DNA of 64,000 nt from Candidatus Aminicenantes bacterium (GTDB lineage: Bacteria; Acidobacteriota; Aminicenantia; Aminicenantales; UBA4085). The notes under the pieces were generated by a model, which worked only from the letters and a program-made list of their open reading frames with translations, did no database searches and had not been told where the DNA came from. Each line of letters opens with the position of its first letter. The first letter of the stretch is position 1. Below are positions 20,617 to 63,748 of this stretch, piece by piece. Position numbers and translations under genes: made by a program. Location: assembly GCA_963729855.1 (NCBI GenBank), contig CAVSPT010000004.1, forward strand, positions 165,206 to 229,205, in the 5' to 3' direction.

Positions 20617-20712
20617 AATTTTCTCCTTGTTCGTTATTCCTTGGAATCAGGCAATGGATTTAATCGCATGACTCGAAAAGTTCGAAGGCAAAGCTCGAAA
20701 AGGGGCCGATTT

Positions 20713-20749
20713 AAAAAAGCGAGGGCTTGAGAAACATGCTTCTCCGCCC
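20713..20749 (-). terminator. Possible intrinsic terminator for the MFS/oxidoreductase transcript
   Basis: Minus strand has a GGGC/GCCC plus GAGAAG/TTTCTC hairpin followed, after 4 nt, by T6. Confidence 0.4.
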
Positions 20750-20765
20750 ATGCAGCTCTCCGAAG

Positions 20766-20989
20766 AGGGATCAACTGGAATGGCCGATGCGACCTTTGAG
20801 GGTTTAGCCGTTTCGAGTCGTTTTCGAGGGAAGCCGGATCGGAAGGAAGACGGCCGGCGAAGATGTTTGAGCGGCCCGGGCCACATCCGTAATATCGAGT
20901 ACGGGACGCGAGTTCTGAGCCGCCGAGAAAACGACGTGGAAACGGCGTGAAGAACCCGAAAGGGAGCGAGGCCATTCCGGTTGATCCCT
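20766..20989 (+). ncRNA. Structured ~220-nt element, copy A (candidate ncRNA or structured repeat)
   Basis: Closing stem AGGGATCAACTGGAATGGCC/GGCCATTCCGGTTGATCCCT with nested stems. Core 20798-20964 is colinear with 62949-63115 and shows compensatory changes. Confidence 0.65.
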
Positions 20990-22241
20990 ATTTCTTCTTC
21001 GGATTCCACTTCCCGCGGGCCACGGCCGGGACGAAGGCGTCCAGACCCTTGGGGGGGAAGGCGACGGTCTTGCCCAGCTCGGCGCTTTGGTAGGCGGCCA
21101 TAAGAAGCTCGGTCACGCCGACGCCGTCGCTGAAATTCTCTTCGGGCCGGACGCCCTTGAGAAACGATCGGACCATGTGGCGGTTCTCGGCGATATAGCC
21201 GTATTCCGCAGCCTCGTCGGCGACCACGGGCATGAGCCCGATCTCGGCGTTCTGCTTCTCGACGAGGTCCTCGCCGGCCCTGCCTTTGACTTCGCGGCTG
21301 AAAAAGACCTTCAAGCCGGCGTCGAGCGTGTTGATCTGGAGGGCGTACTCGGGGCCCAGCAGCTCCATGCTCAAGCGCAGGCCGGCGCCGACATAGCACC
21401 ATGAGGTGGTCGTCTCGACCACGATGATCTTGCCCCGGCGGTCCTTGTACTCGACGAGCGAGCGGGCGAAATCCTCGGCCGGGCGCTTGAGGTAGTCGGT
21501 CTTCCCGCCGCTGCGCCTGGAAAGAAGGGCGGCGTACTTCGGCTCCTGCCATTTGAGGCAGTTGGTGTAGGCCGTGACGCTGACCGGCGTCAGAACGCCG
21601 CGCGGCGCGCCCGGGGGGGTCAGCATGAAGCGGGCCTCCTCGACCGAATGGCACATCATGTCGTTTAACACGCCGCCGCCTTGGAGGGCCCCCTCCCAGA
21701 ACCAGGGCATGTGCGGGCCGCTGTGCTCCTCGGCGGCCCGGGCCAGGTAGGGCGGCCCGGCGATGGCCGCCCCGCGGGCCCAGACGATTTCCTTGCCGCG
21801 GGTCACGGCCGGGGAAAAAACCTGGTTTTCCAGGTAGCCGTCGAGCAAGCCGGCCTTCTGGGCCAGGGCCAGCATCTTCTTGGCCTCCCGGACGTTGCGG
21901 CCGAGCGGCTTCTCGCAGGTCACGCCGATGAGCTCGGCCCGGCCGGACGCGACGGCATGGGCGATCTCTTCCATGACTTCGGTCCGGGTATAGTTCGGGG
22001 CGCAGATCCAGAGGGCTCCGATGGCCGGATCGGCGGCCATGGCCGCGATCGATTTGTAGGGCTTGGCCTCGCCGCAGCCGAGCGAGCGGACCAGGGCGCA
22101 GGCCTCCTTGGCCCGCTTGGCGTCGGGGTCGAAGACGCCCAGGATGTCGGCATCGCGGACGCCGACCCAGGACTTGATATGGAAGCGGGCGATGAACCCG
22201 CCGCCGATGATGCCGACGCCGAGCGATTCGGGTTTGTGCAT
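20988..22241 (-). CDS. Gfo/Idh/MocA family NAD-dependent oxidoreductase
   Basis: 'GIIGGGFIA', 'CEKPL' and 'GGGVLNDMMCH'. A GAGGT RBS favours the ATG at 22241 (alternative 22286). Confidence 0.9.
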   Translation of the reverse strand: MHKPESLGVGIIGGGFIARFHIKSWVGVRDADILGVFDPDAKRAKEACALVRSLGCGEAKPYKSIAAMAADPAIGALWICAPNYTRTEVMEEIAHAVASGRAELIGVTCEKPLGRNVREAKKMLALAQKAGLLDGYLENQVFSPAVTRGKEIVWARGAAIAGPPYLARAAEEHSGPHMPWFWEGALQGGGVLNDMMCHSVEEARFMLTPPGAPRGVLTPVSVTAYTNCLKWQEPKYAALLSRRSGGKTDYLKRPAEDFARSLVEYKDRRGKIIVVETTTSWCYVGAGLRLSMELLGPEYALQINTLDAGLKVFFSREVKGRAGEDLVEKQNAEIGLMPVVADEAAEYGYIAENRHMVRSFLKGVRPEENFSDGVGVTELLMAAYQSAELGKTVAFPPKGLDAFVPAVARGKWNPKKK

Positions 22242-22278
22242 GATTGACCTCTTTGGATTGATCTGCGTTTTCCGGGGG

Positions 22279-23520
22279 CTAGGCATGGGAAACGGCGGCC
22301 GTTGTCTTCAGGCGGAAGAAAGCGATGAAAATCACCAGGCAGAGAAGCGTCAGGGCGGTCGGGACGAGGAATGTGCCCCTCCAGTTGATCGCTTTGACGG
22401 TGTGGCCGGCCGCATCCAGGCTTTCGACCGTGAAAAGCTTCTGGGTCCAGCCGCAGAAGAGACTTCCGACGAAATTGCCCAGGCCGAGGATGATGACGGC
22501 GATGAGGCTCTGGGCCGAGGCCCGGACGTCCTTGGGGGCCACGCTGTCCACGTAGATGTAGGCGGCCGTGAAAAAGAAGACATAACAGAATCCATGAAGG
22601 GCCAGGGAGGCGACAACCAGCCAGGAGGGCCCGCCGATGACGAAGATGATGTAACGGATGGGCCAAGCCAGGATGCCCAGGGTCATGGTCTTCCCCGTGC
22701 CGAACTTGCGCAGGGCCCACGACAGCATGAAAGCCATGACGAAGATTTCGGCGAACTGACCGATGGTCATGACGGCCGTCACGGATTTCTGGCTGACTCC
22801 GATGGCGGCCGAGGTGAGGAAGGGCGAGGTCAGCACGTAGTAGAACTGGAGCTCGGTGGCCACGACGAAGGAGATGATGGTGAAGACGAGAAAGTCGCGG
22901 TCCTTCAGCATCTTGAGCGCTTCGAGAAAAGCCCAGGGCTTGGCGCCTTCTTTCTTGGGGGGGGTGGGAGGCAGGCCGAACGAGAGGACTCCCATGATCA
23001 GGGAGAAGATCCCGGCCAAAATGAGCATGTCGCCCTTCATGGCGATGTCCTGCGGCGATTTGGCCAGCACCCGCCAGGCGGCCAGGGCCCATCCGGCGGC
23101 GATCCAGCCGATCGTTCCCCAGACCCGGATCTTGCCGAAATCCTTCTCCGAATCCTTGAGATTGATGAAGGCGATGGAATTGGTCAGGGCCAGGGTCGGC
23201 GCGTAGATCAGGCAGTAGAGGAGCATCAGCCACATCATGGTCGAAAAGGCCGTGACGCTGGCGATCAAGATGAGGATGACGCCTCCGACAAGCTGCAGGA
23301 CGGCGATGACCTTCTGGCTGGAAAAATAGCGGTCGGCGAACTGGCCTCCGATGAAGGGCGAGATGATCGTGGCCAGCGGAAGCAGACTGAAAATGAGCCC
23401 GAGCTCCCAGCCGCTGAAACCGAGGTTATTCTGGAGATAAGCCGATAAGGCGGTCGCCCAGGAACCCCAGATGGCATACTGGAGAAACATCATCATGCCG
23501 AGGCGGAATCTTGCGCTCAT
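22279..23520 (-). CDS. MFS transporter, nucleoside:H+ symporter (NupG/XapB) family
   Basis: 'MMFLQYAIWGSW', 'IRVWGTIGW', 'GQFAEI' and 'LHGFCY'; about 12 TM segments. Confidence 0.9.
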   Translation of the reverse strand: MSARFRLGMMMFLQYAIWGSWATALSAYLQNNLGFSGWELGLIFSLLPLATIISPFIGGQFADRYFSSQKVIAVLQLVGGVILILIASVTAFSTMMWLMLLYCLIYAPTLALTNSIAFINLKDSEKDFGKIRVWGTIGWIAAGWALAAWRVLAKSPQDIAMKGDMLILAGIFSLIMGVLSFGLPPTPPKKEGAKPWAFLEALKMLKDRDFLVFTIISFVVATELQFYYVLTSPFLTSAAIGVSQKSVTAVMTIGQFAEIFVMAFMLSWALRKFGTGKTMTLGILAWPIRYIIFVIGGPSWLVVASLALHGFCYVFFFTAAYIYVDSVAPKDVRASAQSLIAVIILGLGNFVGSLFCGWTQKLFTVESLDAAGHTVKAINWRGTFLVPTALTLLCLVIFIAFFRLKTTAAVSHA

Positions 23521-62918: not shown

Positions 62919-63138
62919 AAATCGAGGGGACGGTCGAAGCGGCCCTTCGAGGGTTTAGCCGTTCTGAGGCGTTTTTTCGGGCAGCCCGCCCGGAATGAGG
63001 CGGGCCGGCGAAGATGTTTGAGCGTCCCGGGCCAAATCCGTTAAATCAAACACGGAACGCGAGTTCTGAGCCGCCAAAAAAACGCCGCTAGAACGGCGTG
63101 AAAAACCCGAGAGGGCCGCAAGGCCGTCTCCTCGATTT
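62919..63138 (+). ncRNA. Structured ~220-nt element, copy B (candidate ncRNA or structured repeat)
   Basis: Closing stem AAATCGAGGGGACGGTC/GGCCGTCTCCTCGATTT. Core 62949-63115 is colinear with copy A. Confidence 0.65.
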
Positions 63139-63150
63139 CACCCCACCGCT

Positions 63151-63729
63151 TTAGTAGTTCTCGCTCTTGATCTCAAAGTAGGCCTGCGGGTGCTGGCAGG
63201 CGGGGCAGACGGCCGGGGCCTCGGGCCCTTCATGGACGTAGCCGCAGTTGCGGCAGACCCAGCGGACGGCCTGGCCCTTTTTGAAGATCTGGCCGGAGCG
63301 GACGTTGTCCAGCAGGGCGCGATAACGCTTCTCGTGCTGGAGCTCGACCTTGGCGATGGACTTGAACGCCGCGGCGACCTCGGGGAAGCCTTCCTTCTCG
63401 GCTGCGGCGGCAAAATCTTTATAAATGGCGGTCCATTCCATTTTCTCGCCGTTGGCCGCCGCCTCCAGGTTTTGGGCCGTGTCGCCGATCACGCCGCCCG
63501 GATAGGCGGCCGTGATCTCCACATCGCCGCCCTCGAGGAACTTGAAGAAGCGCTTGGCGTGCTCCTTCTCGTTGTCCGCCGTCTCCAGGAAAATGGCGGC
63601 GATCTGCTCGAAGCCGGCCTTCTTGGCCACTCCGGAGAAATAGGTGTAGCGGTTGCGGGCCTGCGATTCGCCGGCGAAAGCGGCCAGCAGGTTCTTTTCG
63701 GTCTGGGTGCCTTTCAATGATTTGGCCAT
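63151..63729 (-). CDS. rbr: Rubrerythrin
   Basis: '[12 protein letters not shown]', 'NEKEHA', 'EGF', 'HEKRY' and C-terminal CRNC..CPAC. Confidence 0.95.
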
Positions 63730-63748
63730 GGTCATGTTCCTTTCTGAA

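Follow-up and report, generated by a model that had tools for sequence, protein, structure and literature searches.

Decayed copies of a non-autonomous transposable element with a deeply conserved, structured cargo in a bacterial genome

Introduction

Is a structured, intergenic piece of DNA that recurs within a genome a gene for an RNA, a signal in single-stranded DNA or the relic of something mobile? The question is raised by about 224 nt in the window, by which we mean the whole 64,000-nt stretch that was analysed. Our answer is that the genome contains four decayed copies of a non-autonomous transposable element, and that the feature is one of them. It is a MITE, and the structured cargo inside it is unusual and deeply conserved. 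The probable account in full is this: the shell of the element is of the ISL3 type; its interior, here called the rod, is a cargo that belongs to a family found in about ten phylum-level groups; ISL3 acted in trans; and the two copies of the window, A and B, were inserted after the split from the closest sampled relative.

The copies in the window and in the genome

The features needed for the argument are the following (positions in the window).

20634..20987, no strand: block missing in the closest relative, G005, at the orthologous site; the rod and about 130 bp to its left
20738..20757, plus strand: degraded remnant of the ISL3-type terminal inverted repeat on the left of copy A; aligns with GGTTCTCTTCCAATTGGTG
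20766..20989, plus strand: rod module, copy A (about 224 nt), a long hairpin of several stems with a three-way junction at its apex
20833..20854, plus strand: side hairpin GCCGGAT...AGACGGC, which makes the three-way junction; helix 10 of the 69-copy alignment
20852..20873, plus strand: 5' half of the conserved apical core of copy A (GGCCGGCGAAGATGTTTGAGCG); position confirmed
20872..20910, plus strand: P2, the apical hairpin between the core halves; helix 14 of the 69-copy alignment
20906..20924, plus strand: 3' half of the conserved apical core of copy A (ACGCGAGTTCTGAGCCGCC); position confirmed
20988..22286, minus strand: gene for a GFO/IDH/MocA-type oxidoreductase (Pfam PF01408 and PF22725); flanks copy A, outside the element
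62919..63138, plus strand: rod module, copy B; lies between convergent genes and aligns to copy A
63003..63024, plus strand: 5' core half of copy B, a 22-mer identical to that of copy A
63057..63075, plus strand: 3' core half of copy B, a 19-mer identical to that of copy A
63151..63735, minus strand: rubrerythrin gene (Pfam PF02915); downstream of copy B, outside the element

Positions 20798-20964 of copy A align without a gap to 62949-63115 of copy B. An earlier note, made from the letters of the window, had counted about 31 mismatches in 167 nt; the recount yields exactly 31, and the strings quoted there stand at their expected places, 8/8 in copy A and 8/8 in copy B. The chance level is far lower: the best of 200,000 random pairs of segments from the window is identical at 80 of 167 positions. 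The plus strand of 20760-20995 (236 nt) folds with -120.3 kcal/mol (z -8.98), which none of 200 shuffles equals; the minus strand of the same region reaches -105.9 kcal/mol (z -8.21). Both copies are intergenic. The stop codon of the oxidoreductase gene adjoins copy A and has the same position in G005, which is devoid of the element.

The genome harbours more than the two copies described at first. There are four, and hundreds exist elsewhere. Copy A (C4:185995-186175) and copy B (C4:228149-228320) are joined by two more on contig C6; the four are thus dispersed over two contigs at distances of tens to hundreds of kb. The covariance model R1 of the family matches copy A at G000:C4:186048-186137 and has its best match in this genome in copy B (E 7.3e-8). 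Copy A is the most divergent member of the four-copy alignment. That alignment also corrects the view that the closing stems are largely different in sequence and yet paired: the pairing is indeed kept, but the stems are homologous once all four copies are aligned, with the consensus ATCGAGGGAATGGTCGAAGCG... / ...CGCGAGGCC.TTCCCTCGAT.

Pairing kept by selection

The two window copies form nearly all of the consensus pairs in their own sequence, 62/69 in copy A and 63/69 in copy B; all four copies of the genome lie at 62-63. Random substitution at the observed divergence leaves only 44-55 of the 69, and 0-1 of 2,000 simulations reach the observed figure. The same holds for a broader sample. Among 69 copies from related genomes, aligned at the level of the window's order, both partners change in 52 of 70 pairs; 86.6% of the alignment cells are paired, versus 74.0% in shuffles, of which 0/500 reach the observed value, and 36-51% when the partners are slid, the significance of the shuffle controls being overstated because the aligned copies are related to one another. 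The consensus sequences of the two largest subfamilies have 67/70 pairs in Watson-Crick form with different stem sequences. The earlier proposal that selection acts on structure plus a sequence-specific core is thereby borne out.

The individual helices behave differently. In the P2 apical hairpin both partners change in 7 of 10 pairs, and neither its sequence nor its length is fixed within the family. The side hairpin is paired in 97.4% of its cells, with 4 of 5 pairs changing on both sides; it is specific to the window's order, and in other phyla it is absent or replaced by a short bulge. Even the core contains a covarying column pair, 178:236, where A/G faces U/C (AU 53, GC 14).

The conserved apex and its distribution

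The signature of the family is a bipartite apical core of about 45 nt: GCGARG..TGTYTGAGC, then the free hairpin P2, then GCGAGTTCYG(C)AGC. It sits atop helices whose sequence is free and whose pairing is maintained by compensatory change. The pattern GCGA.G..TGT.TGAGC is invariant or nearly so in the 69 order-level copies and in 53 cross-phylum representatives, and GCGAGTTC of the 3' half is invariant in both alignments. The blocks that had been called invariant from two copies thus turn out to be the universal core of the whole family. The position Y of TGTYTGAGC varies only between C and U, opposite an invariant G. The length of P2, by contrast with the core, lies in other phyla anywhere between about 11 nt and more than 100 nt.

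The exact core pattern matched at least 120 stretches, usually several per genome. Judged by record titles, the apex is spread over about ten phylum-level groups; the titles among the matches listed name Patescibacteria, Saganbacteria, Aminicenantes, Beta- and Gammaproteobacteria, Actinomycetota, Bacteroidales, Arcobacteraceae, Lentisphaeria, Polyangiaceae and Eubacterium. Among the matches listed, 108 could be evaluated: a conserved tail follows in 104 of them, a count that takes in 13 'TGAGCCGC' cases added by reading, and at least 25 pairs span the core in 85. Out of 121 genomes from a betaproteobacterial order R1 detects the family in 26, and out of 121 from a Patescibacteria class in 15. 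The apex was not found in a further 150 genomes from the phylum of the window.

Mobility and the ISL3 shell

That the element moves is evident from the sites it occupies. Site A is empty in four of five informative genomes of the same genus (G005, G003, G001 and G002); in G007 the same spacer contains a copy of 70% identity, and G006 is not informative there. Site B is empty in all five informative genomes (G005, G006, G001, G003 and G002), G007 being uninformative. Contigs from related organisms in run X4 join 20554/20561 to 20985/20991, leaving out 423-430 bases at site A. Of the options offered by the earlier note, the non-autonomous mobile element is the correct one, as the empty orthologous sites at A and B show.

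The shell is recognised from relatives. A repeat of 22 bp occurs four times in G019 as inverted pairs exactly 1,325 bp apart, which enclose reading frames with Zn_ribbon_ISL3, HTH_Tnp_ISL3 and DDE_Tnp_ISL3 domains, and it also delimits ISL3 copies in G047, G055 and G035. In a form of about 22-26 bp it is common to ISL3 elements of 1,325-1,340 bp and to 17 of 74 rod copies from relatives; these 17 carry it at both ends, form units of 274-333 bp, and include two from the window's genus. Their 8-bp target duplications are perfect in seven, have one mismatch in four and 2-8 mismatches in the remaining six. Derivatives that have lost the apex by internal deletion keep the terminal repeats. The earlier statement that the termini are not conserved, that target duplications are missing and that the element is unlike a classical MITE accordingly applies to the decayed copies of the window, not to the family. 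In the window's genome none of the four copies shows an 8-bp target-site duplication, and of the terminal repeats only remnants are left: on the left side of copy A, partial ones at the third copy, both but diverged at the fourth, almost none at copy B. The remnant of copy A (20738..20757) is only weakly similar to GGTTCTCTTCCAATTGGTG in L211 and L213, two intact units from the same genus, and its assignment is our own reading.

The rod itself does not come from the insertion sequence. Rod units share with the ISL3 IS only about 25 bp at each end, and R1, run with filters off, matches 0 of 12 full-length autonomous ISL3 loci, while both positive controls match; a derivation of the interior from the parent IS by internal deletion was thus not found. 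Nor does the presence of ISL3 track that of the rod. The window's genome (96.3% complete) has 0 matches to the ISL3 transposase (PF01610). Among 61 relatives 11 have both rod and ISL3, 25 the rod only, 10 ISL3 only and 15 neither, i.e., 11/36 rod-positive versus 10/25 rod-negative genomes contain ISL3, counts to be read with the fact that IS copies are often absent from fragmented assemblies. In other phyla only two of five rod-bearing genomes have an ISL3 match and the termini differ, so that ISL3 explains the mobility only in the window's order. An outer hairpin, 'H', of the rods in other phyla might correspond to the ISL3 repeat pair; three of the five genomes are without an ISL3 match.

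Searches of catalogues and literature

The impression that no known family fits has held up. Rfam 15, which covers the known ribozymes, 6S, SRP and HEARO/IS605-associated motifs, gives 0 matches at gathering score in the whole window and 0 at E up to 1 in five order-level loci; in seven loci of other phyla only flanking SRP RNA and tRNA match, nothing on the element. Copy A has no blastn match among plasmids. Of a betaproteobacterial unit, only the 3' tail hairpin matches plasmids, in two records without an annotated feature there, and the unit has no match among phages; the core pattern occurs in 0 viral contigs.

In literature text the motif strings met only with apparent primer coincidences, the search being confined to text outside supplementary motif collections. 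The accessible parts of two 2026 preprints on non-coding mapping make no mention of ISL3, MITE or inverted repeat, and neither an ISL3-derived MITE nor a shared cargo module was found in the accessible text of a MITE review (PMC10969869). The triplex repeats of PMC4666352, as far as its accessible part describes them, are a different motif. Reading of the sequence led us to reject a likeness to hammerhead, SRP, 5S, sarcin-ricin or CRISPR repeat, and also an IS-end junction. A K-turn at the apex was dismissed in the same way: it fails in the CCGCAGC variant and is contradicted by the covarying pair 178:236.

What the rod may do

In the window's order the element consists of ISL3-family terminal inverted repeats that enclose the rod module of about 225 nt. 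An ISL3 transposase supplied in trans, which makes 8-bp target duplications, probably inserted it, and the rod is a cargo that the autonomous IS does not carry. We lean slightly towards a rod that works as a folded single strand in the sense orientation, in the form of a transcript; the same strand working as single-stranded DNA receives clearly less credit. The invariant apex may be a docking or active site for a conserved partner, which the long helices would merely present. Since the transposase needs only the terminal repeats, the function of the rod would lie outside the ISL3 cut-and-paste step and would serve the persistence or spread of the element. This mechanism is much less certain than the mobile-element part. 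Tentatively, the apex with P1 and P2 might even be a new and widespread functional structured nucleic acid, be it a protein-docking RNA, a small ribozyme or an ssDNA signal, that has reached at least ten phylum-level groups in different transposon shells; on this equally tentative reading, the ISL3 MITE of the window would be one vehicle only.

The strand is indeed not indifferent. The sense strand is the more stable one in 89 of 109 copies. That G-U wobbles favour the plus strand, as had been noticed, is real but modest: G.U exceeds A.C by 234 to 150 in the copies and by 18 to 6 in the subfamily consensus sequences, a count biased by the derivation of the structure on the sense strand. With respect to neighbouring genes 15 copies are co-oriented, 9 antisense, 9 convergent and 8 divergent; 86 of 127 were unclassifiable with a crude ORF caller, and among the classifiable ones no clear bias is seen. 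No promoter-like site was seen around the two window copies either. Taken together, the two findings are awkward for an RNA function.

An unlikely competitor of the transcript is a rod that serves as a recombination, nicking or priming signal in single-stranded DNA, recognised by an HUH/Y1 enzyme (RAYT- or IS200/IS605-like), a tyrosine recombinase (attC-like) or a primosome component; the rod would then mobilise itself, and the ISL3 shell would be one of several vehicles. The strand-asymmetric stability fits such a signal, as do the near-perfect hairpins of the subfamily consensus sequences, the same apex inside different outer termini in different lineages, the head-to-head doublets in Uhrbacteria and many betaproteobacterial genomes, which are reminiscent of REP doublets, and the GCGAG-N3-CGCAG-like motifs that, in our reading, are repeated on both arms. 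In G027, moreover, 9 of 10 copies have their sense strand on the lagging-sequence strand. The bias is not consistent, however: the figures are 4/10 in G019, 1/5 in G272 and 14 versus 11 pooled, G041 being left out as its skew could not be called. The candidate enzymes disappoint too. Y1_Tnp (PF01797) occurs in 31/36 rod-positive versus 20/25 rod-negative relatives and in only three of five copy-rich genomes; the TnpB zinc ribbon (PF07282) occurs in 0 of these five, which together with the strand counts does not point to an IS200/IS605 element or a TnpB omega RNA. Reverse transcriptase (RVT_1, PF00078) is present in one of the five and in 0 copies in the window's genome, so that a retroelement-borne SINE-like RNA is not indicated. 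A search for a co-occurring enzyme, as suggested earlier, thus ended without a candidate: neither ISL3, Y1_Tnp, RVT_1 nor the TnpB zinc ribbon tracks the element. Nor does a protein recur within 3 kb of about 120 copies (1,085 ORFs clustered); the largest cross-locus ORF clusters overlap the element itself, and the next ones, by reading only, look like TctC-type binding proteins and short-chain dehydrogenases. And the copies lie dispersed, not arrayed like integron cassettes.

The remaining possibilities are less probable still. A new class of self-cleaving ribozyme, riding in non-autonomous elements and processing read-through transcripts, is quite improbable, even if the architecture is in our judgement typical of small ribozymes: an invariant internal-loop/bulge core of about 30 nt (unpaired C/U-U-G opposite G-U, a 3-nt UGA bulge, an A.G mismatch), flanked by P1 and P2 that covary and are free in length, multi-copy, associated with mobile elements and patchy in distribution. 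Such a ribozyme would not need the long perfect outer rods, and no Rfam ribozyme matches even at E up to 1. Marginally less credible is a palindromic MITE and nothing else, the pairing being kept by hairpin-templated repair or gene conversion, between arms or between copies, or only because a hairpin or cruciform brings the terminal repeats together for the transposase, and the apex being a frozen accident spread horizontally. Long stem-loop interiors are typical of prokaryotic MITEs according to the accessible part of PMC10969869, the subfamily consensus rods are almost perfect palindromes, and derivatives without apex still have their terminal repeats. Arm-to-arm copying, though, would erase the asymmetric internal loops and the non-palindromic apex, which are preserved, while the stems turn over completely between subfamilies and phyla. 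Identity of the apex at no fewer than about 22 positions in lineages whose stems have no sequence in common is hard to square with a frozen accident, and of the two parts of the element in the window's genome only the terminal repeats, not the rods, have decayed. Least of all can we believe in a host-beneficial family of small-RNA genes at fixed, non-mobile loci. Strong structure, covariation and intergenic position would suit it. Yet both window loci are empty in close relatives, copies of relatives have terminal repeats and target duplications, related genomes differ in copy number, from 0 to more than 20, and next to the window copies a promoter-like site is missing. The MITE with a structured cargo remains the preferred reading.

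Comparison with known systems

Correia/NEMIS, ERIC and RUP are prokaryotic MITEs with long stem-loop interiors, and MITEs are usually treated as eroded IS skeletons, the interiors of which lack information. QMITE2 also has a long stem-loop interior, according to the accessible part of PMC10969869. Like these, the present element is small, non-coding, multi-copy, intergenic and mobilised in trans; its terminal repeats match those of an autonomous IS, it makes target-site duplications, and its predicted transcripts are very stable hairpins. Unlike these, it has an interior that is no deletion remnant of the parent IS, as 0 of 12 ISL3 copies contain it, and an apex conserved across about ten phylum-level groups inside different outer shells.

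REPINs, too, are dispersed hairpin repeats with maintained pairing and are thought to act as folded single strands, and inverted doublets as in REPINs occur in some rod lineages. REP units, however, measure only about 20-40 nt and are not known to have a complex conserved apex; the distribution of Y1_Tnp, the family of the RAYT transposases, does not follow that of the rod, such a gene was not seen next to any copy, and in the window's order the hallmarks are those of DDE/ISL3. Among widespread elements that are defined by single-strand structure rather than stem sequence and function in a strand-specific manner, the attC sites of integrons come closest to the rod. In attC it is the hairpin base that has the conserved boxes, and the tip varies; in the rod the tip is conserved and the base variable, and the copies are dispersed, not arrayed between cassettes. 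Plant retrozymes carry hammerhead ribozymes (PMC4918200, accessible part). As far as that source describes them, they resemble the rod in being mobile, multi-copy and non-coding, with a small structured core between free flanking helices as the sole deeply conserved part; being eukaryotic retroelements with a known ribozyme, they differ from the rod, which moves by DNA transposition and is accompanied by a reverse transcriptase in only one of five copy-rich genomes.

In the present case it is the interior of the MITE that is conserved: one and the same core, without a counterpart in Rfam, recurs on covarying helices from Patescibacteria to Actinomycetota, Bacteroidales and Proteobacteria. Should this core have a definite partner or activity, it would represent a structured element that is both new and widespread, and a rare functional module that moves between transposon families. 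Minimal versions of about 64 nt are small enough for direct biochemistry. The family is in any case worth masking or annotating in searches for new non-coding RNAs.

A minor observation concerns the assemblies. Many copies sit at contig ends; the family therefore breaks assemblies.

Copies of the rod and their fold

The window holds two copies of a long multi-stem hairpin module of about 225 nt, here called the rod, whose conserved tip of about 45 nt is the apex or core:

20766-20989, plus strand: copy A of the rod
62919-63138, plus strand: copy B of the rod

The alignment described in the earlier note is exact: 20798-20964 matches 62949-63115 without gaps and with 31 mismatches in 167 positions, and all strings quoted from it are correctly placed. 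Among 200,000 random pairs of 167-nt stretches of the window, the best shared 80 positions. The element is, however, not limited to the two copies then counted. A covariance model of the core (E up to 1) retrieves exactly four copies and no others from the genome (4.05 Mb, 8 contigs), A and B on contig C4, C and D on contig C6. Once these are aligned, the outer closing stems, formerly thought to be unrelated, prove homologous; copy A is the most divergent.

The plus strand around copy A (236 nt) folds with −120.3 kcal/mol (z −8.98; 0 of 200 shuffles as good), the minus strand of the same stretch with −105.9 kcal/mol (z −8.21). Both window copies are flanked by ordinary metabolic genes, and no promoter- or terminator-like signal of note was seen at either. 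On the minus strand of copy B, at 63082-63099, a terminator-like hairpin is followed by T7 (ACGCCGTTCTAGCGGCGT TTTTTTGG), about 50 nt beyond the stop of a minus-strand rubrerythrin gene; chance alone would give roughly one such site in this region.

Compensatory changes

In all four copies, 62-63 of 69 consensus pairs are formed, counted where letters are present. Their six pairwise comparisons reveal 55 pairs changed on both sides and 17 on one side with pairing kept, and 36 in which one copy is unpaired. When the observed number of substitutions is placed randomly in paired columns, only 44-55 pairs are left, and 0-1 of 2,000 simulations retain as many as observed.

The same emerges when 69 distinct copies, drawn from about 20 related genomes, are aligned; RNAalifold then yields 70 pairs in 14 helices. 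Paired cells amount to 86.6%; column shuffles give 74.0%, with none of 500 as high, and sliding the partners by 1-3 columns gives 36-51%. Both sides change in 52 of the 70 pairs, and 618 double-change cells compare with about 215 in shuffles. These controls overstate significance, since the copies share ancestry and the alignment itself supplied the structure. The slid partners and the substitution simulation agree in direction with the shuffles. Between the two largest subfamilies the stems differ in sequence, yet in their consensus sequences 67 of the 70 pairs are Watson-Crick. The pairs kept beyond simulation and those changed on both sides thus bear out the earlier claim of compensatory pairing.

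Filled and empty sites

Orthologous loci were located via flanking proteins in seven genomes of the same genus. Site A is empty in four of them (G005, G003, G001, G002), the spacer there measuring 0-138 bp versus about 450-470 bp in the window's genome. G007 holds a rod, 70% identical, in this spacer; the contig of G006 stops short of the site and is uninformative. Site B is empty in G005, G006, G001, G003 and G002, and in G007 one side is not alignable. Relative to G005, whose flanks are about 90% identical in nucleotides, the extra block is 20634-20987; the stop codon of the oxidoreductase gene next to copy A has the identical position in both genomes. In one soil metagenome, three contigs from related organisms, at less than 95% likeness, run straight from 20554/20561 to 20985/20991, and the filled form is present in the probable source metagenome run. 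The comparison of orthologous loci, proposed earlier as a check, thus finds both window sites empty in close relatives. The rod element is mobile.

The ISL3 shell

In other genera of the same bacterial family a further inverted repeat, GGTTCTCTTCCATTTTGTGTGG, surrounds the rod. With up to 3 mismatches, this 22-mer is found 8+8 times in G019, 33+24 times in G013 and 15+17 times in G024, but once in the window's genome; its backwards-read control scores zero. The solitary match (L186, G000:C6:1058406-1058427, outside the window) has 2 mismatches and no partner within 1.5 kb, the ISL3 Pfam PF01610 has no match in the whole genome, and L186 is probably a relic ISL3 end.

In G019, four pairs of the repeat, spaced exactly 1,325 bp, surround two overlapping ORFs (336 and 147 aa) with the domains Zn_ribbon_ISL3, HTH_Tnp_ISL3 and DDE_Tnp_ISL3. 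ISL3 copies with these ends also occur in G047, G055 and G035. The splitting of the transposase, common to L180 (G019:C1:423761-425085) and three identical copies of the same size, could be a programmed frameshift or mean that the gene is broken in all four; intact ISL3 transposases of about 420 aa are found in other genomes. Repeat pairs about 295 bp apart contain the rod; where the spacing is 86-161 bp, they bound shortened forms of that unit that arose by internal deletion.

Both repeats, with at most 5 mismatches, were found at 17 of 74 rod copies in relatives (units of 274-333 bp), one repeat at 8 and neither at 49. Seven of the 17 are bordered by perfect 8-bp duplications of AT-rich targets, four by duplications with one mismatch and six with 2-8 mismatches. 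Two intact units, L211 (duplication AAAAAAAT) and L213, stem from the window's own genus; their repeat begins only about 6 nt outside the rod. Compared with these, the copies in the window's genome have degraded or truncated repeats and no duplication. The feature is a decayed ISL3-mobilised MITE. "Unlike a classical MITE", as it had been called, describes the worn window copies correctly, but not the family, with its ISL3 repeats and 8-bp duplications. Apart from this and the number of copies, the interpretation as a structure with a conserved core and as a mobile element stands.

Although the terminal repeats needed for transposition have decayed, the rods in the window's genome are 90% paired. 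Either they are maintained for a role other than ISL3 transposition, or the copies derive from already diverged, selected source lineages.

MITE and IS have only about 25 bp per end in common, and with filters off the core model finds nothing in 12 full-length ISL3 loci and matches both positive controls. The rod is cargo, not IS debris. In genus g8 (G014, G020; L035, L038 and other copies) the outer inverted repeat around it is not that of ISL3 but GAAGCGGGCGAACGCTC... / ...GAGAACGTTCGCCCGCTTC, which by its sequence suggests a second shell for the same cargo within one bacterial family. Nested insertions, i.e., extra DNA in or beside the side hairpin of the three-way junction, occur in L056 of G021 (about 47 nt) and, with about 135 nt or more, in L187 (420-bp unit) and L188 (365-bp unit) of G024.

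The core in other phyla

The chief interest of the element is its core, shared across phyla. The invariant part reads GCGARG..TGTYTGAGC, followed by hairpin P2 and GCGAGTTC. An exact-pattern scan with one genome per species yielded at least 120 stretches, often on several contigs per genome. Among the matches listed are Candidatus Uhrbacteria and other Patescibacteria, Saganbacteria, Aminicenantes (MAG copies of the window's subtype), Lentisphaeria, Polyangiaceae, Eubacterium, Methylotenera, Methylophilus and other Betaproteobacteria, Gammaproteobacteria, Arcobacteraceae, Actinomycetota, Atopobiaceae, Eggerthellaceae, Bacteroidaceae and Bacteroidales. The scan loci contain 122 matches, 14 of them too close to a locus edge. 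Of the 108 evaluable ones, 104 have the conserved tail (CCRCAGC or CTGAGCC), and in 85 the core is spanned by 25 or more base pairs. Two, L102 and L158, are likely chance matches in coding DNA; L136 and L152 are apparently truncated.

The stem sequences have nothing in common between phyla, and P2 varies from about 11 to more than 100 nt. Outside the window's order the termini differ, too: Saganbacteria units measure about 125-160 nt, those of Actinomycetota about 230 nt with ends of their own. In 53 representatives, the 14 pairs of the core are 89.5% paired versus 30-50% when slid, and the variable pairs in P1, the other helix flanking the core, and at the base of P2 covary. The rod, as the interior of the MITE, belongs to a widespread family with conserved apex and covarying helices.

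In a betaproteobacterial order the core model has matches in 26 of 121 genomes, with as many as 23 scored copies in a single genome; the figures are 15 of 121 for a Patescibacteria class and 0 of 150 for the window's phylum outside its order. Within the window's order, blastn finds the rod in 36 of 61. This patchy distribution fits horizontal spread. The core was not found in 2.9 million viral contigs, and blastn against plasmid and phage collections did not find the element. For the betaproteobacterial unit only the tail has matches, in an Iodobacter plasmid and in a Variovorax replicon, and nothing is annotated at either place.

Strand, partners and possible roles

In 89 of 109 distinct copies the more stable fold is that of the sense strand (mean 9.1 kcal/mol). 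There are more G.U than A.C cells: 234 against 150 in the copies, 147 against 103 in representatives below 85% identity and 18 against 6 in subfamily consensus sequences. Position Y of TGTYTGAGC varies solely between C and U, opposite an invariant G. The single-stranded sense form is favoured only modestly: the plus-strand preference noted earlier is right in direction and small in size. Relative to genes, no clear orientation bias is seen (15 co-oriented, 9 antisense, 9 convergent, 8 divergent), with 86 of 127 copies unclassified. Nor is there a consistent replication bias in the three genomes with a readable GC-skew profile (a fourth could not be called), the sense strand lying on the lagging-sequence strand in 9/10, 4/10 and 1/5 copies. 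The 9/10 belong to the ten rods of the complete genome G027 (origin at about 1.55 Mb by GC skew); this could be chance or a lineage-specific young burst, considered because several copies have identical scores.

A recurrent protein neighbour of rod copies was not found. ISL3 occurs in 11 of 36 rod-positive versus 10 of 25 rod-negative relatives, and in 2 of 5 rod-bearing genomes of other phyla; Y1_Tnp in 31 of 36 versus 20 of 25, and in 3 of 5 copy-rich genomes. Reverse transcriptase is present in 1 of these 5, the TnpB zinc ribbon in 0. None of these families tracks the rod, and no HUH/RAYT transposase, reverse transcriptase or nuclease of the kind earlier envisaged recurs next to its copies. 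In the complete genome G028 a recent burst is indicated by at least eleven identical IS200/IS605-type Y1 transposase genes of 150 aa; there, R1, the covariance model of the core, finds no rod, although blastn with the 3' part of the window copy matched five places.

How might the rod work? We infer that it would act as a folded sense single strand with the apex as functional site, somewhat probably as RNA and only doubtfully as ssDNA. That it serves as an ssDNA recombination or priming signal is unlikely, and a new self-cleaving ribozyme more improbable still. Slightly less credible again is a palindrome that has no function and persists by mechanism, or solely because it helps synapsis. That the rods are a family of host sRNA genes at fixed loci is contradicted by the empty orthologous sites and hardly deserves belief.

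The element behaves like a MITE and, in the window's order, is one; unlike in described MITEs, the conserved part is a cargo common to several phyla and outer shells. There is no Rfam match, in line with the earlier failure to assign a family. The features tested do not place the element with REPIN/RAYT, IS200/IS605 or omega-RNA, attC or retroelement SINEs. The literature searched, in which several motif-discovery papers were covered by their listings, contains no prior description; an earlier report is possible.

Further features of rod units

Head-to-head doublets of rods occur in Uhrbacteria and many betaproteobacterial genomes. After each rod in L063, L071 and L074 (Uhrbacteria) and in L090 and L267-L272 (Betaproteobacteria) come a pyrimidine tract, CTTTCTTTGG, and then a small hairpin, TTACTTTCTTT...AAAGAAAGTAA; judged from its letters, such a pyrimidine-pyrimidine-purine order might in principle allow an intrastrand triplex. 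Betaproteobacteria have a further conserved segment (...CTAGCTGCCGGGCTACCCCCGGC) beyond the tail hairpin.

A short motif recurs on both arms of the rod. In Betaproteobacteria it is GCGAG-N3-CGCAG (arms and core of units such as L271); in the window's order the 5' arm has AGCGAC and the 3' arm GAGCGAGG (window 20786-20794 and 20963-20973), which in our reading give a GC/CG step with G.A mismatches on either side. Its orientation is the same on both arms, and the copies therefore face each other in the fold.

One rod of Saganbacteria (L129) lies about 200 nt downstream of the 16S rRNA 3' end (GGATCACCTCCTTTCT) and thus apparently in the rRNA spacer. In L090 (5530-5628) a rod doublet is located some 300 nt upstream of a genuine SRP RNA gene.
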